Below are positions 10,204 to 63,969 of a stretch of DNA of 64,000 bases, in pieces (the first letter of the stretch is position 1; every line of letters starts with the position of its first letter). A program made the translations under genes and the position numbers. The notes under the pieces were generated by a model that was not told the DNA's origin, did not search any database, and saw only the letters and a list, made by a program, of their open reading frames with translations. Origin of the DNA: Elusimicrobiota bacterium (GTDB lineage: Bacteria > Elusimicrobiota > Elusimicrobia > UBA1565 > UBA9628); contig JBBQVX010000001.1 in the NCBI GenBank assembly GCA_038211115.1, positions 19,900-83,899 on the forward strand, given 5' to 3'.

Positions 10204-10232
10204 TTGACGCCCCACGACGCCCCTGTTACAAT
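10204..10232 (+). promoter_or_regulatory. Sigma70-like promoter TTGACG-N17-(TGt)TACAAT, 7 nt before ATG 10240
   Basis: TTGACG at 10204-10209, a 17-nt spacer, TACAAT at 10227-10232 preceded by TGt. The ATG at 10240 starts MRVCLITPP. Confidence 0.55.
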
Positions 10233-10239
10233 GAAAGAG

Positions 10240-11733
10240 ATGCGGGTTTGCCTCATCACGCCCCCCTCAATTTTCCTCCTGGATGAACGGGTCTTCATGA
10301 CCTTGGGCATCCTGCGGGTGGCCGCCGCTTTGGAGGGGGCCGGCCACCAGGTCGAGATGCTCGATCTGTCCGGCATCGAGAACTACGAGGAGGTCATCCG
10401 CCTCCACGCGAAGACGAGCGAGGCCAAGGTGTTCGGCCTGACCGCGACGACCCCCCAGATGCCCGCCGCTTTCCGCGTGACGCAAGCGCTGCGCGGCGCC
10501 CGACCCGACGCGAAGATCCTCCTCGGCGGCCCCCACATCACCCTCATCAACGCGGCCTATAAAGGAGAGCTCGCCCGCAAGGCGCCCGGCCGCGCGGCCA
10601 AGGCGCTCGAGAAGATGCTCGCGACCTACGACGTCCTGGTCCCGGGCGACGGCGAGGAGGCCGTCTTCGAGGCGCTCAAGCCGGACGCGCCGAAGATCGT
10701 CGACGGCGACGACCCTAAAACCGCACTGTTCCTCACGAACCAGAAGCTCAACGAACTCCCGTTCCCGGCCCGTCATCTCGTGGACGCGAAGAGCTACCAC
10801 TATTCGATCGACAACGTGCCCGCGATGAGCCTGATCGCTCAGCTCGGCTGCCCGTTCGCGTGCGGCTTCTGCGGCGGACGCGAGTCGCCGATGCTCCGCC
10901 GCGTGCGCACGCGCAGCACCGAGAACGTGGTCCAGGAGATCGCTCACCTCGCCGACAAGTACGGCACGAAGGGCTTCATGCTGTACGACGACGAGCTCAA
11001 CGTCAACCCGAAGATGGTCGAACTCATGAACGCGATCGCCTCCGAGCAGGAGAAGCGCGGCGTCGAATGGCGCCTGCGCGGGTTCATCAAGTCCCAGCTC
11101 TTCACGGATGCGCAGGCCGAGTCGATGTACCGCGCGGGCTTCCGCTGGATCCTGACCGGCTTCGAGTCGGGCTCCCCGCGGATCCTGCAGAACATCAACA
11201 AGCGCGCGACCCGAGAAGAGAACACGCGCTGCGTCGAGATCGCCAAGCGCCACGGCCTCAAGGTGAAGGCGCTGATGTCGATCGGCCATCCCGGCGAGTC
11301 CGAGCAGACGATCATGGAGACGCGCGACTGGCTGCTCGAAAGCAAGCCCGACGATTTCGACGTCACGATCATCACGACCTATCCCGGCACGCCCTACTAC
11401 GACCGCGCGGTCCAGCACCCGACGATGAAGAACGTCTGGGTGTACACGTACCCTGAGACCGGCGACCGCCTGTACGGCTACGAGGTCGACTACACGCAGG
11501 TCGCCGACTACTATAAAGGCGACCCCGACGGCGGCTACAAGGCCTACGTCTACACCGACCATCTGAGCGCCGCGAAGCTCGTGAGCCTGCGCGACCAAGT
11601 CGAGCGCGAGGTGCGCAAGACGCTGAATATCCCGTTCAACGCGGGACGCCCGGCCCAGCGCTTCGAGCACTCGATGGGCCAACTGCCCGCGACGATCCTC
11701 CGCGCCTCCGCGGCCGCGGCCGCGCGGAGCTGA
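10240..11733 (+). CDS. B12-binding-domain radical SAM protein
   Basis: N-terminal Rossmann-like MRVCLITPPS...LGILRVAAALEGAGHQVEMLDL and CxxxCxxC (CPFACGFC). I prefer the start at ATG 10240 because the track's TTG 10204 coincides with a -35 box. Confidence 0.85.
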   Translation: MRVCLITPPSIFLLDERVFMTLGILRVAAALEGAGHQVEMLDLSGIENYEEVIRLHAKTSEAKVFGLTATTPQMPAAFRVTQALRGARPDAKILLGGPHITLINAAYKGELARKAPGRAAKALEKMLATYDVLVPGDGEEAVFEALKPDAPKIVDGDDPKTALFLTNQKLNELPFPARHLVDAKSYHYSIDNVPAMSLIAQLGCPFACGFCGGRESPMLRRVRTRSTENVVQEIAHLADKYGTKGFMLYDDELNVNPKMVELMNAIASEQEKRGVEWRLRGFIKSQLFTDAQAESMYRAGFRWILTGFESGSPRILQNINKRATREENTRCVEIAKRHGLKVKALMSIGHPGESEQTIMETRDWLLESKPDDFDVTIITTYPGTPYYDRAVQHPTMKNVWVYTYPETGDRLYGYEVDYTQVADYYKGDPDGGYKAYVYTDHLSAAKLVSLRDQVEREVRKTLNIPFNAGRPAQRFEHSMGQLPATILRASAAAAARS

Positions 11734-11735
11734 CC

Positions 11736-12755
11736 GTGCGCCTGCTCCTGATTCCCGACCCGACCTCTCCCAACGGCGAGGACGCTTTCTGCCGCGAGAT
11801 CGTCAAGCGCTCGCCCGCGCGCGGCCATTCGGCGAAGATGCAGATGGCGCCCAACGGGCCGGCCGAGGCCGCGGCGGAGCTGCTGATCTCCCAGGGCTTC
11901 GCGAGCGACTCCGACGTCGTCGTCATCAACAGCCTCCAGCCGGCGGCCCTCCTCGCGGCGAAGAACGCCGGGAAGGCGACCGTCCTGCGCCTGATCGAAT
12001 CCTACGCCGGCGCTTCTCCGGATTCGCTCTCCGAGGTCAAGCGGCTCGCGTCGGCGGCGAACCTGCTCCTGTTGCCGAGCCGGCACATGGCGGGCATCGT
12101 CGCGGGCTGGGGCGTCCCGGAAAGCCGCATGCGGGTGATCCCGTACGCGTACGACCAAATCTTCGCCCAGCAGATCGCGCTCGTGACCGTGCGCTCGTCG
12201 CGCGCGCGCGGCTTCACGGTCGTGACCGCCGGCGTCGTCGACGCGGCGTCGCTTCCCGGCTTCGAGACGGTGCTTTCGGCCGTCGCGCGCCTGCGCATGG
12301 ACGTCCACGTGACCGTAATCGGCGACGGGCCCGCGCTGCCCGCGCTCAAGGAGCGCGCGCAAGCGCTCATGCTCGGCGAGCGCGTGACCTTCCTCGGCGA
12401 GCTGCCGCACGCGAAGAAGATGGAGTACTTCCGCTCCGCGAAAGCGTTCGTCGAGCCGACGGGCCGGCACGGCTTCCCCTCGCTCGCGTTGCACGCGCTG
12501 TCGGAGGGTTGCCCCGTGCTCGGCGTGCGCGCCGGCGCGCTGCCTGAGTTCATCCGCGACGGCGAGAACGGACTGCTCTTCGCTCCGGGCGACGCGGCCG
12601 GCCTCGCAGAGCACATCATCACCTTGAACACGACGCCCGGCCTGTCGCTGCGCCTGATCGCCGAGGGCGTGCGCACCGTCGAGCGCCATTCGTGGAACGC
12701 CACCGTCGCGGCCGCGCTCGACGCCGTCGAGACGCTCGAGGTGAAGGCGAAATGA
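11736..12755 (+). CDS. Glycosyltransferase family 4 (GT-B)
   Basis: C-terminal FVEPTGRHGFPSLALHALSEGCPVLGVRAGALPEFIRDGENGLLF (the E-x7-E region). GTG start. Confidence 0.85.
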   Translation: MRLLLIPDPTSPNGEDAFCREIVKRSPARGHSAKMQMAPNGPAEAAAELLISQGFASDSDVVVINSLQPAALLAAKNAGKATVLRLIESYAGASPDSLSEVKRLASAANLLLLPSRHMAGIVAGWGVPESRMRVIPYAYDQIFAQQIALVTVRSSRARGFTVVTAGVVDAASLPGFETVLSAVARLRMDVHVTVIGDGPALPALKERAQALMLGERVTFLGELPHAKKMEYFRSAKAFVEPTGRHGFPSLALHALSEGCPVLGVRAGALPEFIRDGENGLLFAPGDAAGLAEHIITLNTTPGLSLRLIAEGVRTVERHSWNATVAAALDAVETLEVKAK

Positions 12756-13513
12756 TCTGCGCGCTTCTCGTCGATCCCGACGACAGCATCGACTTCCCCG
12801 GCAACGGCGCCGAGGTCATGGGCCGGCCGCTCGCCGCCTACCCGCTGCTCGCGTCCAAGGCCTCCGATCACGCCCGGCGCATGTACGCGCAGACGAACTC
12901 CGAGCCCGTGCGCCGCACCGCCGTCCAGCTCGGAGCCATCGTGCTCGATCCGCCGCCCGCTCGCACCGACGGCACCAAGCCGACGGACGCGACGCGCGTG
13001 CGCATCGGCTACCGGCAGATCGTCGAGGACCTGAAGGCCGAAAAGGGCGAGCTCGAGCTGCTCGTGCTCCTGTTCGCGAACACCGGCGCGGTGAGCACAC
13101 CGCTGATCGACGCGGGCGTGACGGCCCTACTCGACGACCCGAAGCTCGACTCCGCCGCGACGGTTTCCCCCTACCATCGCTGGAACCCGCGGCGCGCGTT
13201 CCGCGAGGGCAAGGACGGCCGGCTGGTCCCCTACGCCGAATGCCTGCCGGAGGCCGGGTCGCCGTGGTTCCCCGACTGGGGCGCGGCGATCCTGCGGCCG
13301 CGCGTCCTCGAGACGATGAACGCCGACTCGCCGGACCTCGCGTGGCTCGGCGAGAAGATCCTGCCCCTCAAGCAGGCCGGCGGCGGGCCCGTCGATTATC
13401 AGTGGCAGGTGCCGAAGATGGAATACTGGCTTAAGAAGCAGGGCGTGCGCGACTCGCCGCGCCCCGAGCCGATGCCGAAGCTCGCCCCCGCGCCGAAGCC
13501 CGACCGGAGATGA
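12752..13513 (+). CDS. Cytidylyltransferase-family (CMP-NulO synthetase-like) protein with a degenerate N-terminal signature
   Basis: Fold-like collinearity (GRPLAAYPLL, LLVLLFANTGAVS, ATVSPYHRWNP). The usual ARGGSK-type loop reads DPDDSIDFPGNG. ATGA overlap with the upstream gene. Confidence 0.6.
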   Translation: MICALLVDPDDSIDFPGNGAEVMGRPLAAYPLLASKASDHARRMYAQTNSEPVRRTAVQLGAIVLDPPPARTDGTKPTDATRVRIGYRQIVEDLKAEKGELELLVLLFANTGAVSTPLIDAGVTALLDDPKLDSAATVSPYHRWNPRRAFREGKDGRLVPYAECLPEAGSPWFPDWGAAILRPRVLETMNADSPDLAWLGEKILPLKQAGGGPVDYQWQVPKMEYWLKKQGVRDSPRPEPMPKLAPAPKPDRR

Positions 13514-15144
13514 TCCCCCGACTCCTCGCGTTCAGCCTGGCGCTCGGCGGGCTGCGCGACGCGCGCCTGTTCGCCGCCGCGGGCGCGGCCGCCTGGGCCG
13601 CCGTTTGGCTCGAGCGCCCGCCGCTGGGCCCCGCGACGCAGTGGTTGCCGTGGCTCGGCTGGGCGCTGCTCTCCACGCTGGTCTGCGCCCAGCCGCTCGC
13701 GGGCCTGCCGGTCCTCGCGAGATGGTCCGCGGTCCTCGCGTGCGCGTCGCTCGCGGCCGCGTGGACGACGCGCGAGCGCGAGGACTGGCTCCGGTCTTTC
13801 CTCGTCGTCGCCGCGGGCGTCGCGGCGGCGGCCCTCGCGACGGGCGCCCGCTACGATTTCCGCAACGAGATGACGGGACTCATCCCGCCTTATTACAACT
13901 ACACGGCCTTCGTGCTGGCCGCCGCCGCCGCCGCCGCCGCCGCCTGGGCGCTGCACCCAAAAGGCGCGCGCGGCACGGATCGCAAAGCCGCCGGCTTCAT
14001 GACCGCGCTGGCGCTACTGTGCCTTTTCCTCTCCCGCTCGCGCGGAGCGTGGCTGGGGCTCGGAGCCGCCGCGGCCGTCTGGTCGGCGCGGCGCTTCGGC
14101 GCGCGCGCGCTGGCCGGAGCGGCCCTCGCTTCAGCGCTGTTCGGGGGCGCGCTCGCCGCGGGTCTGCTGCCGCCCTCCGTCGAAGACATTTTCTTTAAGA
14201 AGTACCGCCTTCACGCCGAGGCGCGACCGCGCCTCTGGCGCGCCGCCGCGGCCGTCGCGTCGGACCATCCCTGGCTCGGCGAGGGCCCGGGAAGCTTCGC
14301 CGTCGGCTTCCGGCGCCACCCCGTGCCGCTCGAGGACGGCGCGACGCGCTGGTCGCTGAGCACGAGCTACGCGCACAGTGAGCCGCTCCAGGCCGCGGCC
14401 GAGACCGGCTGGGCGGGCCTGGCGCTGTGGCTGCTCGGCGCGGGCGCGGCGTTGCGCGCGTTGTTGCGACGCGCGGATCACGATCCCGTCCGAGAGGCCG
14501 CGGCCGCGGCCGCCGCCGCGATGACGGCGCAGCTCGCGATCGACAACATGCTGCAGATTCCCGCGCTCGCCGCGCTCTGGCTCTCCGCGCTGGCCGTCGC
14601 GGGCGCAGCGCCCGGCGTTCGACGCTGGCCGCGCGCGGCCGTCCTCGCCGGCGGGCTCCTCGCCTCGGTCGCGTGGATTCCCGGCACTCTGGCCGGCGTC
14701 TCGCCCGCGTACGCCGCCGCGGTCTTCCCCGCCGAGCCCGGACCCCGGGAGGACCTGGCCTACGCGGCCAAGACGCCCGCCGACGCGGCGGCCCGCTGGA
14801 CGCAAGCGCGCGAGCGCGAGCCGTTCAACGCGATCCATCCCTGGCGCCTGGCGCAGCTCGCGTGCGCGTCCCGTCGATGGGCCGAATGCGAGAGCCTGGC
14901 CGAAAGCGCGCTCGAGCTCGAGCCGGGCTTCATGAACGCGCGGCTCACGCGGGCCGAGGCCCTGGCCCGCCTCGGCCGTCTCAAGGACGCGCGCGAGGCG
15001 CTCGACGAATTCCGGGAAACGCGTGCCACGAGAAGCGACGCGGCGCGGAACTCCGGCTACGAAAAAGCCGTCGTGACCTTCGACCGCCGCGACTACGACC
15101 GGGTCGCCGCTCTCGCTGGCCGCCCGCCGCTGGAGCCGCGATGA
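13510..15144 (+). CDS. O-antigen ligase/polymerase-like (Wzy_C) membrane protein with a C-terminal TPR region
   Basis: Polytopic, with the Wzy_C-type segment FLSRSRGAWLGLGAAAAVWS and TPR-like helices near the C-terminus (ALELEPGFMNARLTRAEALARLGRLKDAREAL). Confidence 0.8.
   Translation: MIPRLLAFSLALGGLRDARLFAAAGAAAWAAVWLERPPLGPATQWLPWLGWALLSTLVCAQPLAGLPVLARWSAVLACASLAAAWTTREREDWLRSFLVVAAGVAAAALATGARYDFRNEMTGLIPPYYNYTAFVLAAAAAAAAAWALHPKGARGTDRKAAGFMTALALLCLFLSRSRGAWLGLGAAAAVWSARRFGARALAGAALASALFGGALAAGLLPPSVEDIFFKKYRLHAEARPRLWRAAAAVASDHPWLGEGPGSFAVGFRRHPVPLEDGATRWSLSTSYAHSEPLQAAAETGWAGLALWLLGAGAALRALLRRADHDPVREAAAAAAAAMTAQLAIDNMLQIPALAALWLSALAVAGAAPGVRRWPRAAVLAGGLLASVAWIPGTLAGVSPAYAAAVFPAEPGPREDLAYAAKTPADAAARWTQAREREPFNAIHPWRLAQLACASRRWAECESLAESALELEPGFMNARLTRAEALARLGRLKDAREALDEFRETRATRSDAARNSGYEKAVVTFDRRDYDRVAALAGRPPLEPR
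13918..13944 (+). repeat. (GCC)9 trinucleotide repeat encoding poly-Ala inside the O-antigen-ligase-like gene
   Basis: Nine consecutive in-frame GCC codons (VLAAAAAAAAAWAL). Confidence 0.9.
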
Positions 15145-15845
15145 AGCCCATCATGCGCGTCTGCCCCGACAAGGCGGCCCTCGACCGCGCGGCCGCGCGG
15201 CTGATCGTGAAGTTCCTGACCGAAGCGCACGCGGCGAGACGCGCGCCCGTCGCCTTGGCGCTCGCCGGCGGCGGCACGCCCCGCGGCGTCTACGAGCTGC
15301 TGGCGTCGCCCGAGTTCTCGGCGCTCGTCCCCTGGTCCGAGGTCGACGTCTATTGGACGGACGAGCGCTGCGTGCCGCCGGAGCATCCGGACAGCAACTA
15401 CGGCATGGCGGAGCGCGCGCTGCTGTCGAAAGTCCCCGTCTCCCCGGCGCGCGTCCACCGCATCCAAGGCGAGCTCGGCCCGGAGAAGGCGGCCCTGCTG
15501 TACGACGCCGAGCTGCGGCGGCTGGGCCGGGGGTGCGACGCGGCCGTCCTCGGCGTCGGCGCGGACGGGCACACGGCCTCGCTCTTCCCGGGAGACGCGG
15601 CGCTCGAGGAGCGGACCGCCTGGGCGGCGGCGGCCTCCTCCCCCGGCGGGCCGAGAGTGACCATGACCTTTCCGTACCTGAATCTCGCCGAGCGCGTCCT
15701 GGTCCTGGCAAGCGGAGCGGAAAAAGCGAAGCCGGTCGACGCCGCGACGCGCGGCGCCTTCGGCGCCTACCCCGTGCTGCGGCTGATCCCCAAGACGCCA
15801 GCACTCTGGCTCGTGGATCAAGAAGCGGCCGACCTTTCTCGGTGA
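15141..15845 (+). CDS. pgl: 6-phosphogluconolactonase / NagB-family sugar-phosphate enzyme
   Basis: LALAGGGTPRGVYELL, WSEVDVYWTDERCVPPEHPDSNYG and GVGADGHTASLFPG. Confidence 0.8.
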   Translation: MKPIMRVCPDKAALDRAAARLIVKFLTEAHAARRAPVALALAGGGTPRGVYELLASPEFSALVPWSEVDVYWTDERCVPPEHPDSNYGMAERALLSKVPVSPARVHRIQGELGPEKAALLYDAELRRLGRGCDAAVLGVGADGHTASLFPGDAALEERTAWAAAASSPGGPRVTMTFPYLNLAERVLVLASGAEKAKPVDAATRGAFGAYPVLRLIPKTPALWLVDQEAADLSR

Positions 15846-15863: not shown

Positions 15864-16643
15864 ATGAAAGTCGTCATTTTGGCCGGCGGAAAAGGCACGC
15901 GCTTCGCCGAGGAAACGGACAGGCGCCCGAAGCCCATGATCGAGATCGGCGACCGGCCGATCCTCTGGCACATCATGCAGCGCTACTCCGCCTTCGGCCT
16001 GAGGGACTTCGTCGTCTGCCTCGGCTACAAGGGGTACACGATCAAGGAGTACTTCGCGAACTACCTGCTCCACTCCTCCGACGTGACCATCGACCTGCGC
16101 CGCGGCACGACCTTGATCCATCACCGTAACGCCGAGCCCTGGAAGGTCACCCTCGTCGACACCGGCGAGGAGAGCATGACCGGCGGCCGCCTCAAGCGCG
16201 TGAAGAACTACATCGGCCGCGGGACTTTCCACATGACTTACGGCGACGGCGTCTCCGACGTCGACCTGCGCGCGCTGACCGCCTTTCACAAGAAGTCGGG
16301 CCGCGCGGCGACGGTCACCGCGGTGCGCCCCCCCGGCCGCTTCGGCGCGCTCAAGCTCGCCGGCGGCCGCGTCGCGCGCTTCCAGGAGAAGCCCGGCGGC
16401 GATGGCGGCTGGATCAACGGCGGCTTTTTCGTGCTGGAGCCCTCGGTCATCGACCTCGTCGACGGAGACGCCACGTCCTGGGAAGGCAAGCCGATGGAGC
16501 GTCTCGCCGCCGGCGGCCAGCTCGGCGCGTACGAGCACGCCGGCTTCTGGCACCCGATGGACACTTTGCGCGACAAGAATTATCTGGAGGAGCTGTGGAC
16601 GAGCGGCAAAGCGCCGTGGCTGGCCCGCGGCCGCAAGCCCTGA
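15864..16643 (+). CDS. rfbF: Glucose-1-phosphate cytidylyltransferase
   Basis: MKVVILAGGKGTRFAEETDRRPKPMIEIGDRPILWHIM and WINGGFFVLEP...LAAGGQLGAYEHAGFWHPMDTLRDK. Confidence 0.9.
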   Translation: MKVVILAGGKGTRFAEETDRRPKPMIEIGDRPILWHIMQRYSAFGLRDFVVCLGYKGYTIKEYFANYLLHSSDVTIDLRRGTTLIHHRNAEPWKVTLVDTGEESMTGGRLKRVKNYIGRGTFHMTYGDGVSDVDLRALTAFHKKSGRAATVTAVRPPGRFGALKLAGGRVARFQEKPGGDGGWINGGFFVLEPSVIDLVDGDATSWEGKPMERLAAGGQLGAYEHAGFWHPMDTLRDKNYLEELWTSGKAPWLARGRKP

Positions 16644-17875
16644 GCTCCGGACACGCCTGCCGCTTCTGCGGCGCGGCGCTGACGCGCACCTTCGCCGATC
16701 TCGGCCTTACGCCGCCGTCCAACTCGTTCGTGCGCCCCGAGGCCGCCGACCTCGGAGAGACCTTCCTGCCGTTGCACGCGTTCGTCTGCGGCGGCTGCTT
16801 CCTCGTGCAGATCGGCGAGTACCGGAGCCCGAAGGCGATCTTCGAGGAATACGCGTATTTTTCCTCGTTCTCCGACAGCTGGCTCGCGCACGCGAAGCGC
16901 TACACGGAGACGATCGGCGAGCGCCTGGGCCTTGGCCCCGAGAGCCTCGTCGTCGAGCTCGCGAGCAACGACGGCTATCTGCTCAAGAATTTCAAGGAGC
17001 GCGGGATTCCTTGCCTCGGCGTCGAGCCCGCGAAGAACGTCGCGAAGGCCGCCGTGGAAAAGGGCGTTCCGACGATCAGCGAGTTCTTCGGGACCGCGCT
17101 GGCTAAGCGCTTCGTCTCGGAAGGCAAGCGCGCGAATCTGCTGCTCGGCAACAACGTGCTCGCCCACGTTCCCGACCTCAACGACTTCGTCGCCGGGATG
17201 AAGCTCCTGCTGGCGCCGGGCGGGACGATCACGATGGAGTTCCCGCACCTGCAGCGCCTCGTCGAGCAGAACCAGTTCGACACGATCTACCACGAGCACT
17301 TCTCCTACTTCTCGTTCGTCGCCGTTGAGCGCGTGTTCGCGAAGGCCGGCCTGACCTTGTTCGACGTCGAGGAGCTCCCCACGCACGGCGGCTCGTTGCG
17401 AATCTACGCGCGGCACGCCGAAGGAGATCCCCGCCCCGTCGCGGAGGCCGCGCGCGCCCTCGCCGCGCGCGAGCGCATGCTCGGCTACGAGCGGCTCGAG
17501 ACCTATGACGCGTTCGCCGAGCGCGTGCGCGCGACGAAGCGGGATCTGCTGACTTTGCTCATCGGACTGAAGCGCGGCGGCAAGCGCATCGCGGGCTACG
17601 GCGCGCCCGCCAAGGGCAACACCTTGCTGAACTACTGCGGCATCGGACCGGACTTCATCGACTTCACCGTCGACCGCAGCCCGCACAAGCAGGGCACGCT
17701 CCTCCCCGGCACGCGCATTCCCGTCCTGGCCCCCGAAGCCCTGAGCGCGGCGAAGCCCGACTACGTGCTGATCCTTCCCTGGAACCTGCGCGACGAGATC
17801 GTCTCCCAAACCTCCTACATCCGCGAGTGGGGCGGCAAGCACGTCGTGCCGATCCCCGAGCCCGCAGTCCTCTGA
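16595..17875 (+). CDS. NDP-hexose C-methyltransferase (zinc-ribbon plus class I SAM MTase plus C-methyltransferase C-domain)
   Basis: CRFCGA...DLGLTPPSNSF, VVELASNDGYLL and the C-terminal HKQGTLLPGTRIPV. The start is uncertain: GTG 16595, GTG 16616 or CTG 16640 (see finding). Confidence 0.8.
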   Translation: MDERQSAVAGPRPQALSSGHACRFCGAALTRTFADLGLTPPSNSFVRPEAADLGETFLPLHAFVCGGCFLVQIGEYRSPKAIFEEYAYFSSFSDSWLAHAKRYTETIGERLGLGPESLVVELASNDGYLLKNFKERGIPCLGVEPAKNVAKAAVEKGVPTISEFFGTALAKRFVSEGKRANLLLGNNVLAHVPDLNDFVAGMKLLLAPGGTITMEFPHLQRLVEQNQFDTIYHEHFSYFSFVAVERVFAKAGLTLFDVEELPTHGGSLRIYARHAEGDPRPVAEAARALAARERMLGYERLETYDAFAERVRATKRDLLTLLIGLKRGGKRIAGYGAPAKGNTLLNYCGIGPDFIDFTVDRSPHKQGTLLPGTRIPVLAPEALSAAKPDYVLILPWNLRDEIVSQTSYIREWGGKHVVPIPEPAVL

Positions 17876-25325: not shown

Positions 25326-25392
25326 GGAGACCTCCACGACTTCCTCCAGACTCGATTATTTTTCCGTCGGCGCCGCCATGACGAGCGGGCGA

Positions 25393-26303: not shown

Positions 26304-28969
<2,666 letters not shown>

Positions 28970-28973
<4 letters not shown>

Positions 28974-33291: not shown

Positions 33292-33292
33292 C

Positions 33293-40174: not shown

Positions 40175-40214
40175 GGCTCGCCGTTCCGGTCCTTCCGTTG
40201 CATGGGTCCCATCC

Positions 40215-42325: not shown

Positions 42326-42339
42326 GGCAAATTGATAGC

Positions 42340-54166: not shown

Positions 54167-54186
54167 AGCGCGGCTACAAGTTGTAA

Positions 54187-54215
54187 TTGATTGTTCGGCG
54201 CGCGCGCTCTATAGT
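54187..54215 (+). promoter_or_regulatory. Candidate promoter TTGATT-N17-TATAGT upstream of the small secreted protein gene
   Basis: TTGATT at 54187-54192, a 17-nt spacer, TATAGT at 54210-54215. This gene has a leader of about 40 nt with a GAGAGG Shine-Dalgarno site. Confidence 0.45.
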
Positions 54216-54255
54216 TCGTCAGTCGGATCGACCGACCATGCGTTGAGAGGATTCC

Positions 54256-54600
54256 ATGCGATTCACGTTCTTGTTTCTGTGCGCTGTTCTCGCCGGGGTT
54301 GCGGGCGCCGCACCGCAAAAGACGACTCTCTCGAATTCCGACGACGCGAAACGTTCCGCCGAGCGGGACAAAATAATGAGCGCTTCCCGGAAGACCGTGC
54401 GCGCGCATGAAAAATCATTGAGGCAGCGCGAGCAAGAAGAGATTCGTTCGCTCAACAACGACTCGAAACGATCTGATGCGGGGAAAAAGGCCCTCACCGA
54501 AGAAATCACGAAAAAATACAGCCTCAAGCGCATGGAGCTTCGTCGCCGCATGAATGCGGACCTTCGCGCACGGCTGCTGACAAATTCCCAAGAGGAGTAG
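54256..54600 (+). CDS. Small secreted, highly charged helical protein (hypothetical)
   Basis: Signal peptide MRFTFLFLCAVLAGVAGAAP and a K/R/E-rich remainder. GAGAGG lies 5 nt upstream of the ATG. Confidence 0.6.
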   Translation: MRFTFLFLCAVLAGVAGAAPQKTTLSNSDDAKRSAERDKIMSASRKTVRAHEKSLRQREQEEIRSLNNDSKRSDAGKKALTEEITKKYSLKRMELRRRMNADLRARLLTNSQEE

Positions 54601-54612
54601 CGAGGACCTCCG

Positions 54613-57331: not shown

Positions 57332-57338
57332 ACGGGAC

Positions 57339-58658
57339 GTGCCCAGCGACAAGCGCGTTCTCCATTTAACTCCCCACCTGGGAGGCGGCGTGGGTCAGGT
57401 CCTCGGCGGAATCGCCCGCGCCTCGGCCGGGACCGGCTGGCGCCACGAGTTCATCCTTCTCGATGAGCCCGGCGAGGAGTCCCGCCGGAACATCGCGGCG
57501 TTCGGCCTCGAGGTCCACGCGCTAAACGCCTTGGCGGAACGCGCCGCGGGCGCCGACGTCGTCCAGCTCGAGTGGTGGAACCATCCGCTGCTCGGACGCT
57601 TTCTCGGGGAAACACCGCTTCCGCCGTGCCGGCTGCTCGTCTACTCCCACATCTCGGGCTTTCACCACCCGAACATCATCCCGAGGAGCATCGTCGATTA
57701 CGCGGACAAGTTCGTCGCGTCGACGGCGTACACGCTGCGGGAGCTGCCGGTGCTCAAGGAGGTCGACGCGAGCAAGCTGGCCGCGGTGCACTCGTGCGCC
57801 GGCCTCGCGCGCGTTTCGGGCGTGAAGAAGGAGGCCCACGAGGGCTTCGTCGTCGGCTACGTGGGCGCCCTGGATTTCGGCAAGCTGCACCCGGACTTCG
57901 TCGCGATGACGGCCGCCGCGAAGATCACAGGCGTCCGCTTCGACGTCTACGGCGCCGGCGAGGACGCCGGAAAGCTCGCGGAGCAGGTCGGGAAAGCGGG
58001 CGTCTCCGATCGTGTCCGGTTGCGCGGCTACGCCGCGGACGTCGCCCCGGTCTACGCGGGGATGGACGTCCTCGGCTATCCGTTAAACCCGCGGCACTAT
58101 GGCACGGGCGAGCAGGTGCTCATCGAGGCGATGGGCGCGGGCGTGCCGGCCGTCGTGCTCGACAACGGGCCCGAGCGTGAGCTCGTCCGCGACGGCGTCA
58201 ACGGCCTGGTCGCCAAGACTCCGCGCGAGTACACAGCCGCGCTCGAGCGCCTGGCCGAAGACCCCGCCTTGCGCGAGAGGCTCGGGCGCGGCGCCAAGGA
58301 GCGCGCGAAGGCCGACTTCTCGATTGAGACGATCGTGGGCCGGTTCGAGGGCCTGTACGCGGAGCTCCTGCGCGAGCCGAAGCGCGAACGGCCGCTGGCC
58401 GGGCGCCGGTACCCCGCCTCGCCGGGCCTGGCCGCCTTCCTGAACTCGCTCGGCGACGGCGCCGGGCACTACCTAGACAGCGCCTTCTCGAACGACGCCG
58501 CGGCCGTCCAGGCGGCGGACCGCCGTATCGCCCGGGAAAACGTAAACTATACCGGCGGCGCGAAGGGGACCGTGTTCCAGTACCGGAAGTACTTCCCCGA
58601 AGACCCGGTGCTGGCCCGCTGGTGCGACATGATCCTGCGGGAAAAGAGCGTCATCTAG
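57339..58658 (+). CDS. Glycosyltransferase family 4 with a C-terminal extension
   Basis: YGTGEQVLIEAMGAGVPAVVLDNGPERELVRDGVNGLV (the E-x7-E region). GTG start. Confidence 0.8.
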   Translation: MPSDKRVLHLTPHLGGGVGQVLGGIARASAGTGWRHEFILLDEPGEESRRNIAAFGLEVHALNALAERAAGADVVQLEWWNHPLLGRFLGETPLPPCRLLVYSHISGFHHPNIIPRSIVDYADKFVASTAYTLRELPVLKEVDASKLAAVHSCAGLARVSGVKKEAHEGFVVGYVGALDFGKLHPDFVAMTAAAKITGVRFDVYGAGEDAGKLAEQVGKAGVSDRVRLRGYAADVAPVYAGMDVLGYPLNPRHYGTGEQVLIEAMGAGVPAVVLDNGPERELVRDGVNGLVAKTPREYTAALERLAEDPALRERLGRGAKERAKADFSIETIVGRFEGLYAELLREPKRERPLAGRRYPASPGLAAFLNSLGDGAGHYLDSAFSNDAAAVQAADRRIARENVNYTGGAKGTVFQYRKYFPEDPVLARWCDMILREKSVI

Positions 58659-58672
58659 TTTTGGGAGACAGC

Positions 58673-59389
58673 ATGGACGAGAAACGCAACGACCAATTCA
58701 TCGAGACGATGGGCAAGGACGCGGAGCTCAAGGACCTGTCCCACAAGTGGATCAACAAGACGGCCGTCCACGAGTACGGCTACCACTTCCGGTGGATGGG
58801 GCGCCCGATCATCCAGCTCCCGCAGGACATCATCGCGATGCAGGAGCTCATCTGGGAGATCAAGCCCGACCTCATCATCGAGACCGGCATCGCCCATGGC
58901 GGCTCGCTGATCTTCTCCGCCTCCATGCTCGAGCTGATCGGCGGCGAGGGCATGGTCCTTGGCCTCGACATCGAGATCCGCAAGCACAACCTCGACGAGA
59001 TCCTGAAGCACCCGATGGCGAAAAGGATCACGATGCTCGAGGGCTCGAGCATCGACCCGAAGATCGCCGACCAGGTGCGGGCGCACGCGAAGGGCAAGAA
59101 GCGCGTGCTCGTCTGCCTCGACTCGAACCACACGCACGACCACGTGCTACGAGAGCTCGAGCTGTACGCCCCGCTCGTCACGAAAGGCAGCTACTGCGTC
59201 GTCTTCGACACGATCGTCGAGGACGCGCCCGCGGGCAACCGCGAGCGGCCGTGGGGCAAGGGCAACAACCCGAAGACCGCCGTGCACGCGTATCTGAAGA
59301 CCACGGATCTCTTCGAGATCGACAAGCGCATCGAGAACAAGCTCGTGCTCACCGTCTGCCCGGACGGCTACCTCAAGCGAGTCAAATGA
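58673..59389 (+). CDS. CmcI/cephalosporin-hydroxylase-family (sugar O-)methyltransferase
   Basis: YHFRWMGRPIIQLPQDIIAMQELIWEIKPDLIIETGIAHGGSLIF. GGGAGA lies 4 nt upstream of the ATG. Confidence 0.8.
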   Translation: MDEKRNDQFIETMGKDAELKDLSHKWINKTAVHEYGYHFRWMGRPIIQLPQDIIAMQELIWEIKPDLIIETGIAHGGSLIFSASMLELIGGEGMVLGLDIEIRKHNLDEILKHPMAKRITMLEGSSIDPKIADQVRAHAKGKKRVLVCLDSNHTHDHVLRELELYAPLVTKGSYCVVFDTIVEDAPAGNRERPWGKGNNPKTAVHAYLKTTDLFEIDKRIENKLVLTVCPDGYLKRVK

Positions 59390-60324
59390 GCGAGATCGTC
59401 CCTCACGGGGTGATGTTTCATCATTTCCACGGCGGGGCGCATCCTGCCGGGCAGGGCTCGATGTCCGCCCAGGATCTGGAGGCCATGATCGAGCACATGG
59501 GCCGGAAGAACATCATCCCCGCGCGCGAGTGGATGGAGCGCGCGATGCTCGGCCGCCTGCGCCCCGGCGAACTGTGCCTGACCTTCGACGACGGCCTGCG
59601 GTGCCAGTGGGACGTCGCGTATCCGGTCATGAAGGCGCTGGGGCTCGACGCGTTCTGGTTCGTCTACACCTCCCCGCTCGAAGGAAAGATCGAGAGCCTC
59701 GAGCTTTACCGTTACTTCCGCACGGTGAAGTATCCCGACGTCGGGGACTTCTACCGCGCCTTCGACGCCGCGGCGGCCGCAGGCCCGCACGCCAAAGCCG
59801 TCGCGGAGGCGCTCGCGGGCTTCGACCCCGCGGCCTATCTCAAGGATTTCTCGTTTTATACCGACGCGGACCGGCGCTTCCGCTTCACCCGGGACCAGAC
59901 GCTCGGCCCCGCGCGCTACAACGAGGTCATGGACGCGATGATCACCGCCGCGGGCTTCTCGACCAAGGGCCTCGCCGCGAAGCTGTGGATCGACGACAAG
60001 GTCGTCAAGCGCCTGCACGCCGAGGGCCATGTGATCGGCCTGCACTCGCACACGCATCCGACCCAGCTGTGCGCGCTGCCCCCCGCCGAGCAGGAGCGCG
60101 AGTACCGTCTCAATTCGATCCACCTCGCGCGCGTCATCGGCAAGGCGCCGACGGCGATGTCGCACCCGTGCAACTCCTACGACGCCGGCACGCTCGACTT
60201 CCTGAAGGGCTTCGGCCTCGACTTCGGCTTCCGCGCGAATATGGCGATGGCCGACGCGCACGGGCCGCTCGAGCACCCGCGCGAGGACCACGCCAACGTC
60301 CTGAAGGCGATGAGGCCCTCGTGA
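59386..60324 (+). CDS. Polysaccharide deacetylase (NodB homology) family protein
   Basis: LTFDDGLRCQWD and GLHSHTHP. Confidence 0.8.
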   Translation: MSEIVPHGVMFHHFHGGAHPAGQGSMSAQDLEAMIEHMGRKNIIPAREWMERAMLGRLRPGELCLTFDDGLRCQWDVAYPVMKALGLDAFWFVYTSPLEGKIESLELYRYFRTVKYPDVGDFYRAFDAAAAAGPHAKAVAEALAGFDPAAYLKDFSFYTDADRRFRFTRDQTLGPARYNEVMDAMITAAGFSTKGLAAKLWIDDKVVKRLHAEGHVIGLHSHTHPTQLCALPPAEQEREYRLNSIHLARVIGKAPTAMSHPCNSYDAGTLDFLKGFGLDFGFRANMAMADAHGPLEHPREDHANVLKAMRPS

Positions 60325-61121
60325 AGATCGCGGTGTTCACGAGCAACCAGCCCCGCCACTTGGCGCTGATCGAGCGTCTGGCCAAAGTCGCCGAGGTCGT
60401 CGCGACCGTCGAGAGCAACACCGTCTTCCCGGGCGAGGTTCCCGACTTCTACGGCAAGTCCGAGGTCATGAAGGCCTATTTCACGCGCGTGATCGCGGCC
60501 GAGACGAAGGTCTTCGGCCGCCCCCGCTACCTGCCGTCGGGCGCCAAGATCATGCCGCTCAAGATGGGCGACCTCAACCGCCTCGAGCCCGCGGCGCTGG
60601 CGCCCGCGCTCGACGCGGACGCGTTCGTCGTGTTCGGCGCGAGCTACATCAAGGGCGCGCTGTGCGACGCCCTCGTTTCGCGCGGCGCCTACAACATCCA
60701 CATGGGGCTTTCGCCGTACTACCGCGGCAGCGGCTGCAACTTCTGGGCGCTGTCGGACGGGAGGCCCGACCTCGTGGGCGCGACGGTCCATCTGCTGACC
60801 AAGGGCCTCGACTCCGGCCCCATGATCTTTCACGCTGTGCCCGCGGCCGTCCAAATGGACGGCTTCGAGCTCGGGATGCGCGCGGTCGAGGCCGCTCATC
60901 AGGGCCTCGCGGCGCGCCTCGCCGACGGCAGCCTGAAGGCGGCGAAGCCCGCCGTCCAGGACAAGGCCCTCGAGAAGCGCTCGTCGCGCTACGCCGATTT
61001 TACCGACGAGGCCGCCGCGGACTACCTCAAGCGCGAGATTCCCCCGGCCGAGATCGCCCGCGCGCTGAAAGCGCGCGACGAGAAGGCCCTGCTGCGCCCG
61101 TTCATCGGGAAGGAGAACTAA
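60321..61121 (+). CDS. Formyltransferase-fold protein, second copy
   Basis: YNIHMGLSPYYRGSGCNFWAL and GATVHLLTKGLDSGPMIF (Asn-His...Asp). GTGA overlap. Confidence 0.7.
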   Translation: MKIAVFTSNQPRHLALIERLAKVAEVVATVESNTVFPGEVPDFYGKSEVMKAYFTRVIAAETKVFGRPRYLPSGAKIMPLKMGDLNRLEPAALAPALDADAFVVFGASYIKGALCDALVSRGAYNIHMGLSPYYRGSGCNFWALSDGRPDLVGATVHLLTKGLDSGPMIFHAVPAAVQMDGFELGMRAVEAAHQGLAARLADGSLKAAKPAVQDKALEKRSSRYADFTDEAAADYLKREIPPAEIARALKARDEKALLRPFIGKEN

Positions 61122-62011
61122 TGGCTACGGAAGTCGCGATCGGCTGGAAGGATTTTTTCGACGTCAGCGTCTGCGCCGGCCTGCGCTATAAGCTGGACCT
61201 GATCATCGGCCGCGTCGTGCGCCAGGCCCTCGGCGTCTACGACCTGCTGCAGGAAGGCGTGCGCACCGCCCACGTCGGCGCGCTCTCCCCCGAGGCGGTC
61301 GAGAAGTACCGGCTGCTCTGCGAGAACAAGCCCGACGACTACATCGACGCCCGCCAGGTGCCGTTCACCGCTGACGAGATCGCGAACCCGACCGAATGGC
61401 AGAGCTACGGCGCCCAGCTGCTGCTCGAGACCCTCGAGGACAAGTCGCTCGGCATCCGCTCGGCGCTGAACGTCGGCGGCTACAACGACAAGCACTTCAG
61501 CTACATGGCCCGGAAGTTCCCGGAGATGAAGTTCTGCTCCGTCGACTTCATGAGCGAGGCCAAGATGACGGTCTTCAACCGCCTGCTCCCGCAGAGCCCC
61601 AACTGGACGCTCAAGAGCGGCTACGCGCTCGACCTGCTGAAGAAGGGCGAGACGGACGCAGACCTCGTGTTCTTCGCGTCGACGTCGCTCCTGTTCAACA
61701 ACGAGGAGCTCGACCTCTACATCGCCGAGATGGCCAAGCGCTCGAAGGTCGTCGTGATCAACGAGGGCTGGGGCGTCGTCTCGACGGGCAACCGGCTCGG
61801 CTCTCTGCCGCTGCTGCCGAAGGTGATCCGCCCCGAGGACATCCCCGAGAACGAGCCCGTGGTGCGGTCGATGGCGGGGGTGTACTTCTTCTACGCGCAC
61901 AACTACCCCGCGAAGTTCGAGAAGCACGGCTTTACGGTGCGGCTGTCGCGCATCCGGCCGAGCGGCAACCCGGGCCTGTACCTCTACCAGCTCGTCGCGG
62001 TCAAGAAGTAG
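61121..62011 (+). CDS. Hypothetical protein, possibly a methyltransferase-like fold
   Basis: ALNVGGYNDKHF...CSVDF resembles a degenerate SAM motif I/II. The ATG overlaps the upstream TAA by 1 nt. Confidence 0.5.
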   Translation: MATEVAIGWKDFFDVSVCAGLRYKLDLIIGRVVRQALGVYDLLQEGVRTAHVGALSPEAVEKYRLLCENKPDDYIDARQVPFTADEIANPTEWQSYGAQLLLETLEDKSLGIRSALNVGGYNDKHFSYMARKFPEMKFCSVDFMSEAKMTVFNRLLPQSPNWTLKSGYALDLLKKGETDADLVFFASTSLLFNNEELDLYIAEMAKRSKVVVINEGWGVVSTGNRLGSLPLLPKVIRPEDIPENEPVVRSMAGVYFFYAHNYPAKFEKHGFTVRLSRIRPSGNPGLYLYQLVAVKK

Positions 62012-62014
62012 GCG

Positions 62015-62959
62015 TCAGGACGGGTCGTAGATCTCGGCGATGAGCTTCATCGTCTCGACGGACTGATCGAGCGTGACCGACGGCGACGGGCGGCCCTGCG
62101 CCGCCGCGACGGCCGCCTCCGCCTGGGCGAGGAAGCCCGGCTTGAAGTCCTTGTCGCACGCGTGAATCTCGACGGCGACGGCCGGAGAGCCGAGCTCCTG
62201 GCGCGTCAGTTGCTCGAGCGGGCGCATCTCCCAGCGCTTGGCGCCCGCGGAGACCGCGCACGTCCACGGACCGGGCGCGCGCCACACGGCCTCGTAGAGG
62301 CCTTCGTCGCCGGAGTCGAACTCGAGGCGCGCGAGCACGAACTCGGGACGCGCGGGATCGTACTTCGCGAGGCGCTCGACGCGGACGACCTTGCCGCGTG
62401 CAAACAGGCGGAAGTAGTCGATCAGGTGGAGGGAGTTCGCATACATCCAGTTCTCGGCGATCGGCTTCGCGACGCCGGCCGCGAGGACCCTGTCCATGTT
62501 CTGCTGGTCCTGGACGCGGACGAAGCGCCGTCCCTCGGTCGCGCCGAGCTCGGCGGCGGCGGACGCGGTCGACGAGTAGAACGAGCGGTTGTGCGCGACG
62601 AGGGCGCGACGGCCGGCCTTCGCGGCCGCGGCCTGGAGCGCCCTCGACTCCTTGAGGTCGAGGCCGGCGGGCTTCTCGAACAGCACGGTCCACGGATGAC
62701 GAAAGCACGCGAGGCCGATCTCGAGCATCGAGGTCTCGTTGACCGTGACGACGACGAGGTCCGCCTTCGTCTTCGCGTACAGCTCGTCCACTGAATCGCA
62801 AATGAGGGGAATCCCGCGCTCGGCCGCGAGCGCCTCGGCGCGGGAGCGCGTGCGGCTGAAGATGCCGGAGAGCTTGACGCCGGAAATCGCGGCGAAAGCC
62901 TTCGCGTGCTCCTTGGCGGTGTAGCCCGCGCCGATCAGCGCGACGGAGCAGCCGCTCAT
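62015..62959 (-). CDS. Gfo/Idh/MocA-family oxidoreductase
   Basis: VALIGAGYTAKEH and LFEKPAG. Confidence 0.85.
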   Translation of the reverse strand: MSGCSVALIGAGYTAKEHAKAFAAISGVKLSGIFSRTRSRAEALAAERGIPLICDSVDELYAKTKADLVVVTVNETSMLEIGLACFRHPWTVLFEKPAGLDLKESRALQAAAAKAGRRALVAHNRSFYSSTASAAAELGATEGRRFVRVQDQQNMDRVLAAGVAKPIAENWMYANSLHLIDYFRLFARGKVVRVERLAKYDPARPEFVLARLEFDSGDEGLYEAVWRAPGPWTCAVSAGAKRWEMRPLEQLTRQELGSPAVAVEIHACDKDFKPGFLAQAEAAVAAAQGRPSPSVTLDQSVETMKLIAEIYDPS

Positions 62960-63969
62960 GCGAAGGTAAAGCGGCGCTCGAGCGACGCGGCCTCGTCGGA
63001 CACGGCGACGGTCGCATGGCCGTTCTCGTGAGAGCGGTACGCGGCCGCGACGACGGCGACCGCGGAGCGGCCATCCTCGCCGGTCGGGACCTCACGGCCG
63101 GAGATCAGCGCCTCGAGCACGGAGCGCGACGGCGCGAGCGCGTCGGCCGGCGCGACGGGGACGACGCGCGTCGCGGACGGCATGCCGTAGCGCGTCGTGG
63201 GCAGCGCGCGGTGCTCGGCAACGCGGCCGAGGACCTCGATGCGGCCCGCGAGCTCGTCGGCGACGAGCACGCCGTGGCGGCCCGCGTAGATCACGCGCAC
63301 GCCGTGGCCCTGGTCGGAGCCCATCTCCATGTACAGGCGGCGGCCCGACGGGTTCTCGACGCGGATCTGGCCCGCGCCGTCGTCGAACTGGGGCCCGCGC
63401 GGGTTCGGAACGCGGTCCTTCGAGAGCCACGCGGCGACGGTCGCCGGCTTCTCGCCGGTCAGCCAGCGGAACATCTCGAAGTAATGGGAGCCGTTCATCG
63501 CGAGGCCGAAGTTCCCGGAGACGACCGTGACGCTCGCGAGCGCGCCGATCTCGTCGGCGGCGATGAGCTCCTTGACCTTGACGTACTGCTCCATGTAGCG
63601 CATCTGGTGGTTGACGGCCAGGCGCGTCCCGCTCGCCGCGCACGCGGCGATCATCGCGTCGCACTCGGTCAGCGAGGCCGCGAGCGGCTTCTCGCACAGG
63701 ACGGCCTTCGCGCCGGCCTCGGCGGCGAGGATGGTCAGGGGGCCGTGGCCCGGGGCCGTCGTCGCGACGATCACGCACTCGGGGCGGGCGGCCTTGAGCA
63801 TCGCGGCGGGATCGGTGAAGCGGAGCTCCGGGGCGGCCCCGAGCTCGCCGGCCTTGGCCAGGGCCTCGGGGCGGGCGTCGCACACGCCGGCCAAGGGAAG
63901 GCCGAGCGTCTTCACGTTCTGGAGGTGGCGCAGACCCATCGCGCCGAGGCCGATCACCGCTGTCCGCAT
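62956..63969 (-). CDS. Gfo/Idh/MocA-family oxidoreductase
   Basis: MRTAVIGLGAMGLRHL and LCEKPLA. Confidence 0.85.
   Translation of the reverse strand: MRTAVIGLGAMGLRHLQNVKTLGLPLAGVCDARPEALAKAGELGAAPELRFTDPAAMLKAARPECVIVATTAPGHGPLTILAAEAGAKAVLCEKPLAASLTECDAMIAACAASGTRLAVNHQMRYMEQYVKVKELIAADEIGALASVTVVSGNFGLAMNGSHYFEMFRWLTGEKPATVAAWLSKDRVPNPRGPQFDDGAGQIRVENPSGRRLYMEMGSDQGHGVRVIYAGRHGVLVADELAGRIEVLGRVAEHRALPTTRYGMPSATRVVPVAPADALAPSRSVLEALISGREVPTGEDGRSAVAVVAAAYRSHENGHATVAVSDEAASLERRFTFA

Follow-up and report, generated by a model that had tools for sequence, protein, structure and literature searches.

Nonulosonic acids (NulOs) are sugars of the cell surface that influence how hosts, phages and immune systems recognise cells, and nearly all of their biochemistry comes from a few pathogens. 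The flagellar glycosylation locus of Campylobacter comprises about 50 genes. In C. jejuni and C. coli it unites the pseudaminic acid (Pse) and legionaminic acid (Leg) pathways in one region, and several NulO variants issue from it because WbuX-type amidotransferases give acetamidino derivatives (WbuX-type PseA and PtmG; PMC13130089). Here, we analyze a 64-kb stretch of contig JBBQVX010000001.1 from an Elusimicrobiota bacterium (the window); our literature search found no report linking Elusimicrobia to NulOs. We consider it probable that the window contains a chromosomal surface-glycan region with two NulO pathways, one Pse-type and one Leg-type, and a tailoring cassette between them, together with a cytidine diphosphate (CDP)-hexose branch, modifying enzymes, GT4 glycosyltransferases and a Wzy_C ligase.

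The likeness to Campylobacter lies in the presence of both NulO pathways in one region along with WbuX-type amidotransferases. Unlike that locus, the window is without maf or flagellin (the window proteins, scanned with NCBIfam and Pfam over the 64 kb seen, gave no match to these families), and it thus works like the C. jejuni system without being a member of it. It has instead a Wzy_C ligase and an ATP-binding cassette (ABC) exporter, an indication that the glycan is undecaprenyl-linked; the presence of the Wzy_C/TPR protein together with the MsbA/PglK-like exporter suggests that a lipid-linked glycan is transferred outside the cytoplasm, where the putative acceptor would be lipopolysaccharide (LPS) or protein. 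Other differences are the two SpsF-type cytidylyltransferases, a formyltransferase at the place of PseH, the extra CDP-hexose and cassette modules, and the phylum itself.

Each of the other described systems shares a part of this inventory. The sps genes of Bacillus subtilis (SpsM, C, D, G, E and F) also include an SpsF-type cytidylyltransferase and an SpsE-like synthase, but they constitute a single spore-crust pathway without a Gfo/Idh/MocA enzyme, an amidotransferase triad or a second synthase (PMC7439481). Compared with WbuX/WbuY/WbuZ of Escherichia coli O145 and with PseA-type systems, the window has two full triads of WbuX, HisH and HisF-like genes, as had been predicted, both WbuX proteins lying above the TIGR03573 cutoff; one triad is inside the Pse operon and the other follows the CDP-hexose set. 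For the cassette, the comparison is with ElaABC of Acinetobacter baumannii (KL49), in which structural models and docking have led to the proposal that the Gfo/Idh/MocA protein ElaA oxidises the C8 hydroxyl of CMP-Leg5,7Ac2 (PMC13656337), and with the prophage module EpaA/EpaB for NulO C8-epimerisation, in which EpaA is a CTP_transf_3-reductase fusion (PMC12053666). Like these, the cassette, as a probable NulO-tailoring module, combines its own CTP_transf_3 cytidylyltransferase with an NAD(P) oxidoreductase. Its third enzyme, however, is a pyridoxal phosphate (PLP) aminotransferase and not a short-chain dehydrogenase/reductase (SDR) or an aldo-keto reductase (the cassette has no SDR reductase), so that amination rather than epimerisation is predicted, and a GT-B protein is added.

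A codon-usage gene caller finds 65 genes (g01 to g65) in the window, whose guanine plus cytosine (GC) content is about 68%; many of them are joined by 4-bp overlaps. Families were tested by NCBIfam scores against curated cutoffs (given as score > or < cutoff), by Pfam, by PDB sequence searches and by predicted structures compared with Foldseek; homologous loci elsewhere carry L numbers. The Pse-type operon (26.3-33.3 kb) holds these genes:

26304..26897, plus strand: g28, short formyltransferase, first gene of the operon (Formyl_trans_N 71 bits; N-x-H...D motif)
26921..27946, plus strand: g29, PseB, inverting UDP-N-acetylglucosamine (UDP-GlcNAc) 4,6-dehydratase (TIGR03589, 534 > 408)
27936..28973, plus strand: g30, PseG UDP-sugar hydrolase (TIGR03590, 187 > 154)
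28970..30022, plus strand: g31, PseI pseudaminic acid synthase (TIGR03586, 455 > 340)
30019..32572, plus strand: g32-g34, amidotransferase triad 2, PseA-like WbuX (323 > 203), HisH (223 > 105) and HisF/WbuZ (WbuZ 268 < 300)
32569..33291, plus strand: g35, SpsF-like CTP_transf_3 cytidylyltransferase, final gene of the operon (PF02348, 90 bits)

The synthase g31 stays below the cutoff of the NeuB model (305 < 400), and its best PDB match is the PseI structure 8H2C at 290 bits, the other PDB matches scoring about 170. The operon itself is without PseC and PseH; PseB and the PseC-class aminotransferase g46 lie in different operons, 16 kb apart. Pse clusters without PseH are common elsewhere (PMC5109656). 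Homologues of g28 (43-53% identity) occur between PseG/PseC and PseI in four other loci (L088, L102, L106 and L110), a position that makes this formyltransferase a candidate stand-in for PseH, with a formyl group replacing the 7-N-acetyl group. When PseF was sought, g35 matched PF02348 and not PseF, and g45 of the second operon reached 125 < 206.

The Leg-type operon (39.3-53.4 kb) is longer:

39320..42325, plus strand: g41, protein with S-adenosylmethionine (SAM) motif; g42, Rossmann-like protein; g43, TylF-type O-methyltransferase (TylF 56 bits)
42340..43341, plus strand: g44, LegB-like NAD-dependent 4,6-dehydratase (TIGR04180, 440; cutoff 475)
43343..44017, plus strand: g45, NeuA/PseF-like cytidine monophosphate (CMP)-NulO synthetase (PF02348, 84 bits)
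44014..45150, plus strand: g46, PseC-class aminotransferase (TIGR03588, 497 > 423)
45147..46169, plus strand: g47, NeuB/LegI-type NulO synthase (TIGR03569, 430 > 400)
46166..47323, plus strand: g48, NeuC/LegG-type hydrolysing 2-epimerase (TIGR03568, 391 > 236)
47310..47963, plus strand: g49, NeuD/PglD-type N-acetyltransferase (TIGR03570, 209 > 161)
47960..49030, plus strand: g50, CBS plus sugar-1-phosphate nucleotidyltransferase (NTP_transferase 125 bits, CBS 35 bits), which we take to be a PtmE-like architecture
49037..50806, plus strand: g51, MsbA/PglK-type ABC exporter (HepA/MsbA/PglK NCBIfam scores below cutoff)
50803..53419, plus strand: g52, TIGR04440 glycosyltransferase (126 > 70); g53, RmlC-type 3,5-epimerase (172 > 156); g54, Zn-dependent dehydrogenase (Pfam Glu_dehyd_C)

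The two synthases are 41% identical, and g47 falls below the PseI cutoff (302 < 340). The original prediction, which was made from the letters alone, had placed them in different subfamilies and had taken the cytidylyltransferases for NulO enzymes rather than KdsB; the synthases do fall in different subfamilies and no cytidylyltransferase reaches a KdsB cutoff, and its core of two pathways is thereby supported. Its PseB, PseG, PseC-type, NeuC and NeuD calls all exceed their cutoffs, and the CBS-nucleotidyltransferase was recovered by Pfam. The LegB-type dehydratase stands as far as LegB is the best model of g44 (the next-best scores 150), but the score lies just below the cutoff. The aminotransferase g46 is not LegC by profile (TIGR04181, 260 < 420), and its homologues (41-49% identity) come after PseB in metagenomic Pse clusters; the DegT protein that follows the closest g44 homologue, in L090, is only 27% identical to it, so that one aminotransferase is unaccounted for. 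No profile matches g41 or g42; the former is 33% identical over 290 residues to the gene that follows the cassette in L090. The expectation of at least two NulOs agrees with the two different pathways; with only two synthases, the third or fourth NulO that was also envisaged could arise only by tailoring.

Four CMP-NulO-synthetase-family genes had been predicted. Those at 32569, 36698 and 43343 (g35, g39 and g45) match PF02348 well above its cutoff of 22.6 bits and retain the N-terminal R..S.RLPGK motif, and with KdsB models their best scores are 61-63 bits against cutoffs of 155-255. The closest PDB relatives of g45 are CMP-N-acetylneuraminic acid (Neu5Ac) synthetases (2e-26). The other two are 38% identical to each other and share as best solved relative the cytidylyltransferase 6OEW, which in the PDB search matches g35 at 1.5e-35 compared with about 1e-9 for KdsB; g39 has 6084 homologues, many of them labelled SpsF by JGI. 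In B. subtilis, the transfer of legionaminic acid to the spore depends on spsF (PMC7439481). The fourth gene belongs to the family by predicted fold, not by profile:

12752..13513, plus strand: g15, divergent cytidylyltransferase-fold protein (predicted fold only)

It has no Pfam, NCBIfam or PDB-sequence match and belongs to a family of 261 proteins, mainly from Elusimicrobia, in which the basic R..S.RLPGK motif for CTP binding gives way to an invariant D..D..DFPGN; a GGGPxD...WQVP block close to the C-terminus is a further conserved feature. Alignment with the other three cytidylyltransferases by hhalign is weak, at a probability of 26%, but in register. In its AlphaFold model (predicted local distance difference test, pLDDT, 82), the 40 best Foldseek matches are synthetases of CMP-Neu5Ac, CMP-3-deoxy-manno-octulosonic acid (Kdo) and CMP-Pse, the top ones with E about 1e-11 and TM 0.6-0.7. 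The position of g15 after a GT4 gene is kept in relatives (L009). A canonical cytidylyltransferase activity is doubtful, and g15 may act as a nucleotidyltransferase on some other substrate or may be a pseudoenzyme.

Between the two NulO operons, on the opposite strand, lies the cassette:

33449..34810, minus strand: g36, long DegT-family aminotransferase (PseC model 209 < 423)
34807..35775, minus strand: g37, GT-B-fold protein from a family of 2664 representatives without a Pfam model
35745..36701, minus strand: g38, Gfo/Idh/MocA oxidoreductase (Pfam 54 bits)
36698..37450, minus strand: g39, SpsF-family cytidylyltransferase (PF02348, 97 bits)
37447..39201, minus strand: g40, near-orphan of 584 residues, first gene of this operon and outside the conserved cassette

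The gene order g39-g38-g37-g36 is found beside a g35 homologue in a relative (L002; 57-81% identity) and again in Fundidesulfovibrio magnetotacticus and four other distant contigs (L086-L090; 35-69%), always inside a NulO cluster; g39 and g38 overlap by 4 bp, and this pair recurs in L086-L090. A metagenome scan with g36 yielded 80 loci (57-71% identity), which were scored locally by the flank available. A Gfo/Idh/MocA gene stands directly upstream of the long DegT gene in 41 of the 43 loci with at least 2.3 kb of upstream flank, and a g37-like gene is detectable in 26 of the same 43. With at least 3.3 kb upstream, 17 of 39 loci have a g39-like cytidylyltransferase; with at least 6 kb, a NeuB-family synthase is present in 29 of 33 (20 PseI-like and 10 NeuB/LegI-like by best match). 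A frequent order is PseB, PseC, PseG, formyltransferase, PseI, cassette, WbuX-like. The core of the cassette is g38 plus g36, with g37 usually and g39 often present, and our literature search found no described function for it. In F. magnetotacticus (L086, BLTE01000012.1, 2189-4237), a 682-residue fusion of CTP_transf_3 and a class-III aminotransferase (Aminotran_3) directly follows genes for a Gfo/Idh/MocA protein and a PseI-like synthase; the locus has the three cassette activities here for a second time, in a fused form that ties CMP activation to transamination.

The best PDB relative of g36 is 8GYH (221 bits), followed by perosamine synthetases, inosose aminotransferases and the Kdo8N transaminase KdnA. 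We rejected g36 as the missing PseC, given that H. pylori PseC scores 121 bits against the 221 of 8GYH and that other loci encode PseC plus a g36-like enzyme. The model of g37 (pLDDT 94) has nucleotide-sugar 2-epimerases as its top Foldseek matches (TM 0.6-0.66), and its family profile has no match among PDB sequences. Invariant D-x-G-G and H-P motifs and weak PF07388 matches in 2 of 48 family members had raised the idea of a sialyltransferase-like NulO transferase, which the fold ranking does not favour, the top 36 matches being 2-epimerases. Direct homology of g38 and g39 to ElaA and ElaB was rejected, since the PDB sequence matches of the two include no Ela protein. The near-orphan g40, which overlaps g39 by 4 bp, has four matches among 5.8 billion proteins, namely three relatives and an identical copy; it is absent from L086-L090, and a genome scan found no match. 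Shortly downstream of the cassette, L089 and L090 encode a protein of about 530 residues with a weak Capsule_synth (KpsC/KpsS-like) match, to which neither g40 nor g25 is related by any significant BLAST match.

The cassette probably tailors NulOs by giving them an additional amino group; more specifically, we favour, although with considerable doubt, an undescribed route to a 5,7,8-triamino NulO, which would be a third NulO species for this bacterium. On this reading, a finished pseudaminic or legionaminic acid would be CMP-activated by g39, a hydroxyl of the CMP-NulO would be oxidised to a ketone by g38 (at C8, if ElaA is a guide), and the ketone would be transaminated to an extra amino group by g36, the oxidoreductase and PLP aminotransferase together turning C-OH into C-NH2; neighbouring GNAT, WbuX-like or formyl enzymes might then acylate or amidinate the new amine. 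Since the sole free hydroxyl at the hexose stage is at C3, which becomes C6 in the NulO ring, the amination would come after condensation, at C8 or C4. An 8-amino-3,5,7,8,9-pentadeoxy NulO of manno (Pse-like) configuration occurs in the O-antigen of Flexibacter (Tenacibaculum) maritimus (PMC3210612). This is the product type that the cassette model predicts, and the two may hypothetically be linked; we found no genes assigned to that sugar in the literature, where a T. maritimum O-antigen paper gives generic gene classes only.

The part between 10.2 kb and the window edge holds about 53 genes, the majority glycan-related, in seven transcription units whose borders were drawn from intergenic gaps and strand switches:

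10.2-24.4 kb, plus strand: unit 1, g13-g25
24366..26283, minus strand: unit 2, g27-g26, beta-propeller genes, not glycan enzymes (g26, WD40 213 bits; g27, weak NHL/ScyF match)
26.3-33.3 kb, plus strand: unit 3, g28-g35
33.4-39.2 kb, minus strand: unit 4, g40-g36
39.3-53.4 kb, plus strand: unit 5, g41-g54
53483..56331, plus strand: low-GC island, not glycan enzymes (g55, OmpR-type response regulator; g56, small secreted protein; g57, secreted protein)
56.4-62.0 kb (56414..62011), plus strand: unit 6, g58-g63 (g58, radical SAM/SPASM; g59, GT4; g60, CmcI-type methyltransferase; assigned by Pfam and NCBIfam; g61, polysaccharide deacetylase, Polysacc_deac_1; g62, formyltransferase-like; g63, no family)
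62015..63957, minus strand, continuing to the window edge: unit 7, g65-g64, two Gfo/Idh/MocA oxidoreductases (Pfam 68 and 69 bits)

The nearly continuous run of glycan genes announced from 10204 to the edge is thus real, and so are its two exceptions, at 24366-26283 and at 53.4-56.4 kb, where GC falls to 55-58% compared with about 68% elsewhere. The region is not a single operon but seven units with unrelated genes interspersed. Nine genes have no annotation, and the glycan locus may extend beyond the window edge. The two formyltransferase-fold genes that were foreseen are found by Pfam, as are both radical SAM genes and the deacetylase; the three or four glycosyltransferases correspond to two GT4 proteins and the TIGR04440 protein. 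Of at least five expected methyltransferases, three are confirmed by profile (the C-methyltransferase, TylF and CmcI) and one is the B12-radical-SAM protein, but two can be recognized by motif only.

In the island, the receiver domain of g55 is 33% identical to that of g12, the response regulator upstream of the locus, and g56 is small, charged and secreted. The 572-residue g57 is secreted, has a high content of Gly, Ser and Thr and contains G-x-N-x-A-x-G-like segments in repeated form; neither g56 nor g57 has a Pfam, NCBIfam or PHROGs match. The latter may have been acquired recently, or it could lie at the surface and possibly be a target of glycosylation. A phage origin of the island or of the orphan genes was rejected, PHROGs giving no match at all.

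The first unit contains the CDP-hexose branch and the ligase:

10204..10232, plus strand: sigma-70-like promoter match TTGACG-17-TACAAT with extended TG (consensus match only)
10231..11733, plus strand: g13, B12-binding radical SAM protein, class B, methyltransferase-like (Pfam B12-binding and Radical_SAM; NCBIfam sub-threshold)
11736..12755, plus strand: g14, GT4 glycosyltransferase (NCBIfam GT4-family scores below cutoff)
13510..15144, plus strand: g16, Wzy_C membrane protein of the O-antigen ligase / O-oligosaccharyltransferase type with C-terminal TPR (Wzy_C 65 > 31.7)
15141..15845, plus strand: g17, 6-phosphogluconolactonase / NagB-family protein (TIGR01198, 173 > 124; Pfam Glucosamine_iso)
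15864..16643, plus strand: g18, glucose-1-phosphate cytidylyltransferase RfbF (TIGR02623, 429 > 300)
16595..17875, plus strand: g19, nucleoside diphosphate-hexose C-methyltransferase (Methyltransf_14 217 bits, Methyltransf_13 74 bits)
17877..18761, plus strand: g20, SDR epimerase/reductase (Pfam Epimerase 127 bits)
18758..19858, plus strand: g21, CDP-glucose 4,6-dehydratase RfbG (TIGR02622, 397 > 278)
19843..22501, plus strand: g22-g24, amidotransferase triad 1, HisF/WbuZ (HisF 303 > 295), HisH (195 > 105) and WbuX, N-acetyl sugar amidotransferase (368 > 203)
22645..24369, plus strand: g25, 574-residue protein (only a 25-bit PFTS match; none in Pfam or PHROGs)

The promoter proposed at 10204 is indeed promoter-like, agreeing with the consensus at 10 of 12 positions plus the extended TG; there are four such sites, compared with 0.6 in shuffles. 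Its -10 element ends about 7-8 nucleotides upstream of ATG 10240 (MRVCLITPP...), so near that the g13 mRNA may be leaderless or nearly so, in which case the called start at 10231 would be three codons too early and the true start may be ATG 10240. The g18 and g19 calls overlap by 49 nucleotides (16595-16643), and GTG 16595 is probably too early as a start of g19. From their families, RfbF, RfbG, the C-methyltransferase and the SDR protein are predicted to make a CDP-linked C-methyl-6-deoxyhexose. In the window the CDP-hexose genes are scattered over three units (g18-g21, g53 and g60); in seven metagenome loci (L103, L111, L113, L153, L158, L168 and L169), RfbF-, RfbG-, C-methyltransferase-, RmlC- and CmcI-like genes lie downstream of the g36 homologue, which suggests a common glycan recipe that has undergone rearrangement.

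Comparable density is seen repeatedly in Desulfobacterota and metagenomes, where loci combine two synthases with three or four cytidylyltransferases. Two NeuB-family genes fall within 20 kb in three of the five distant loci sampled (L086, L088 and L090), and three or four CTP_transf_3 genes within 20 kb in L086 and L088, so that the density once called unusual was overstated; among the 18 fully flanked metagenome loci, only one has two synthases.

Several observations weigh against the two-pathway reading and the tailoring proposal attached to it. Most steps of the full Pse and Leg pathways are present as predicted, but none of the 53 locus proteins matches the PseH model at E <= 1e-5, the window has no GNAT, and a single PseC/LegC-class aminotransferase (g46), which scores as PseC yet sits inside the Leg-type operon, is available for two dehydratases. 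Because the NeuB model cannot separate LegI from true NeuB, the Leg label rests on operon context. Both g35 and g39 are of the SpsF and not the NeuA type, and the support for SpsF acting on NulOs is genetic and confined to B. subtilis (PMC7439481). The oxidoreductase g38 has no detectable sequence similarity to ElaA, and its PDB matches are weak, with the UDP-sugar 3-dehydrogenase WlbA among them; the 2-epimerase folds closest to g37 are not explained by the tailoring model; and genes for an initiating phosphoglycosyltransferase, for Wzx, for flagellin and for Maf are all absent from the 64-kb window.

For the second operon, true Neu5Ac made by NeuC, NeuB and NeuA with NeuD appears distinctly improbable: g47, g48 and g49 all pass the NeuB, NeuC and NeuD models, but TIGR03569, TIGR03568 and TIGR03570 do not split Leg from Neu enzymes, and g45, nearest in the PDB to CMP-Neu5Ac synthetases, shares its overlapping operon with a LegB-like dehydratase and an aminotransferase, neither with a role in Neu5Ac synthesis, and with the CBS-nucleotidyltransferase. 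That combination argues for a 5,7-diamino Leg-type product, for which a D-glycero-D-galacto configuration would be expected, and the PDB search ranks SpsE, an enzyme of the B. subtilis legionaminic acid pathway, first for g47 (PMC7439481). It is also unlikely, if less so, that the cassette makes a separate diamino sugar for the same glycan from UDP-GlcNAc(A) by 3-oxidation, transamination and 2-epimerisation, on the logic of WbpB/WbpE/WbpI or GnnA/GnnB. The weak PDB matches of g38, which include WlbA, would suit such a route, as would the best folds of g37, which include the WbpI-type UDP-ManNAc3NAcA 2-epimerase, and the GNAT genes that flank the cassette in L002, L088 and L090; it leaves unexplained, however, the dedicated cytidylyltransferase, the L086 fusion and the position of the cassette immediately after PseI in many loci, and the cassette is not accompanied by a UDP-GlcNAc 6-dehydrogenase.

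A broader alternative, quite possible although we would not expect it, is that several independent glycan loci (for example, for an LPS O-antigen, protein O-glycosylation and a capsule-like polymer) lie side by side, each delivering its NulO to a different acceptor. The seven units with their strand switches are in keeping with it, as are the WD40/NHL genes and the low-GC island of regulatory and secreted-protein genes that break up the region, the conservation of the first operon alone in relatives, with variation (L009 is without g13), and the different arrangement of the same gene sets in metagenomes. Pathway steps are nevertheless divided among the units, the sole PseC-class aminotransferase being in the Leg-type operon, and the CDP-hexose genes that are dispersed here are contiguous beside the cassette in L103, L111 and L153; the alternative is, moreover, largely compatible with a surface-glycan region holding two NulO pathways. 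That the density is an artefact of assembly or binning that joined different organisms is extremely improbable. The source is a metagenome-assembled genome (MAG) and the 53.4-56.4 kb segment has lower GC, but an independent Logan contig from a public run equals window positions 32054-42924 (10,871 bp) at 100% identity without gaps, running from the last part of the Pse operon through the whole minus-strand operon into the beginning of the Leg-type operon; the relative L002 has the same convergent g35/g36 junction, and GC and codon usage are even throughout the window except in the island. A chimeric assembly is accordingly unlikely.

The left flank and the first genes of the locus are syntenic with other Elusimicrobiota MAGs, which also speaks against such an artefact. 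The first 10 kb are housekeeping genes, with RimO (469 > 357), a FolD-like protein, TlyA (228 > 186), an RluD-type pseudouridine synthase, a HAD hydrolase, an EamA transporter and a response regulator. The RimO protein is 76-82% identical to those of four Elusimicrobiota MAGs and about 70% to those of Bacteroidota. The order g01-g12 is common to the Elusimicrobiota MAGs, which then run into g13 (L006) or g14-g15 (L009), and the glycan locus therefore stands at an ancestral position. Directly upstream of it, the response regulator g12 (9626-10171) has a C-terminal C-x2-C ... C-x2-C in place of the standard DNA-binding domain and is kept at the same position in L006 and L009 (73-80% identity); it may regulate the glycan locus. 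The 405-residue g10 (7641-8858) has a signal peptide and an N-terminal half made of two similar repeats of about 100 residues, with no match in Pfam or PHROGs. No Rfam family and no tRNA occurs in the 64-kb window.

These results indicate that an uncultured environmental phylum, the Elusimicrobiota, encodes both major bacterial NulO pathways in heavily tailored form. The recurrent exchange of a formyltransferase for PseH and the degenerate cytidylyltransferase-fold family of g15 are defined targets for enzymology. The cassette, a companion of NulO synthases across phyla, is the part most worth following up; should it add a third amino group, it would provide the genes so far missing for triamino NulOs and a new CMP-sugar tailoring route for glycoengineers.

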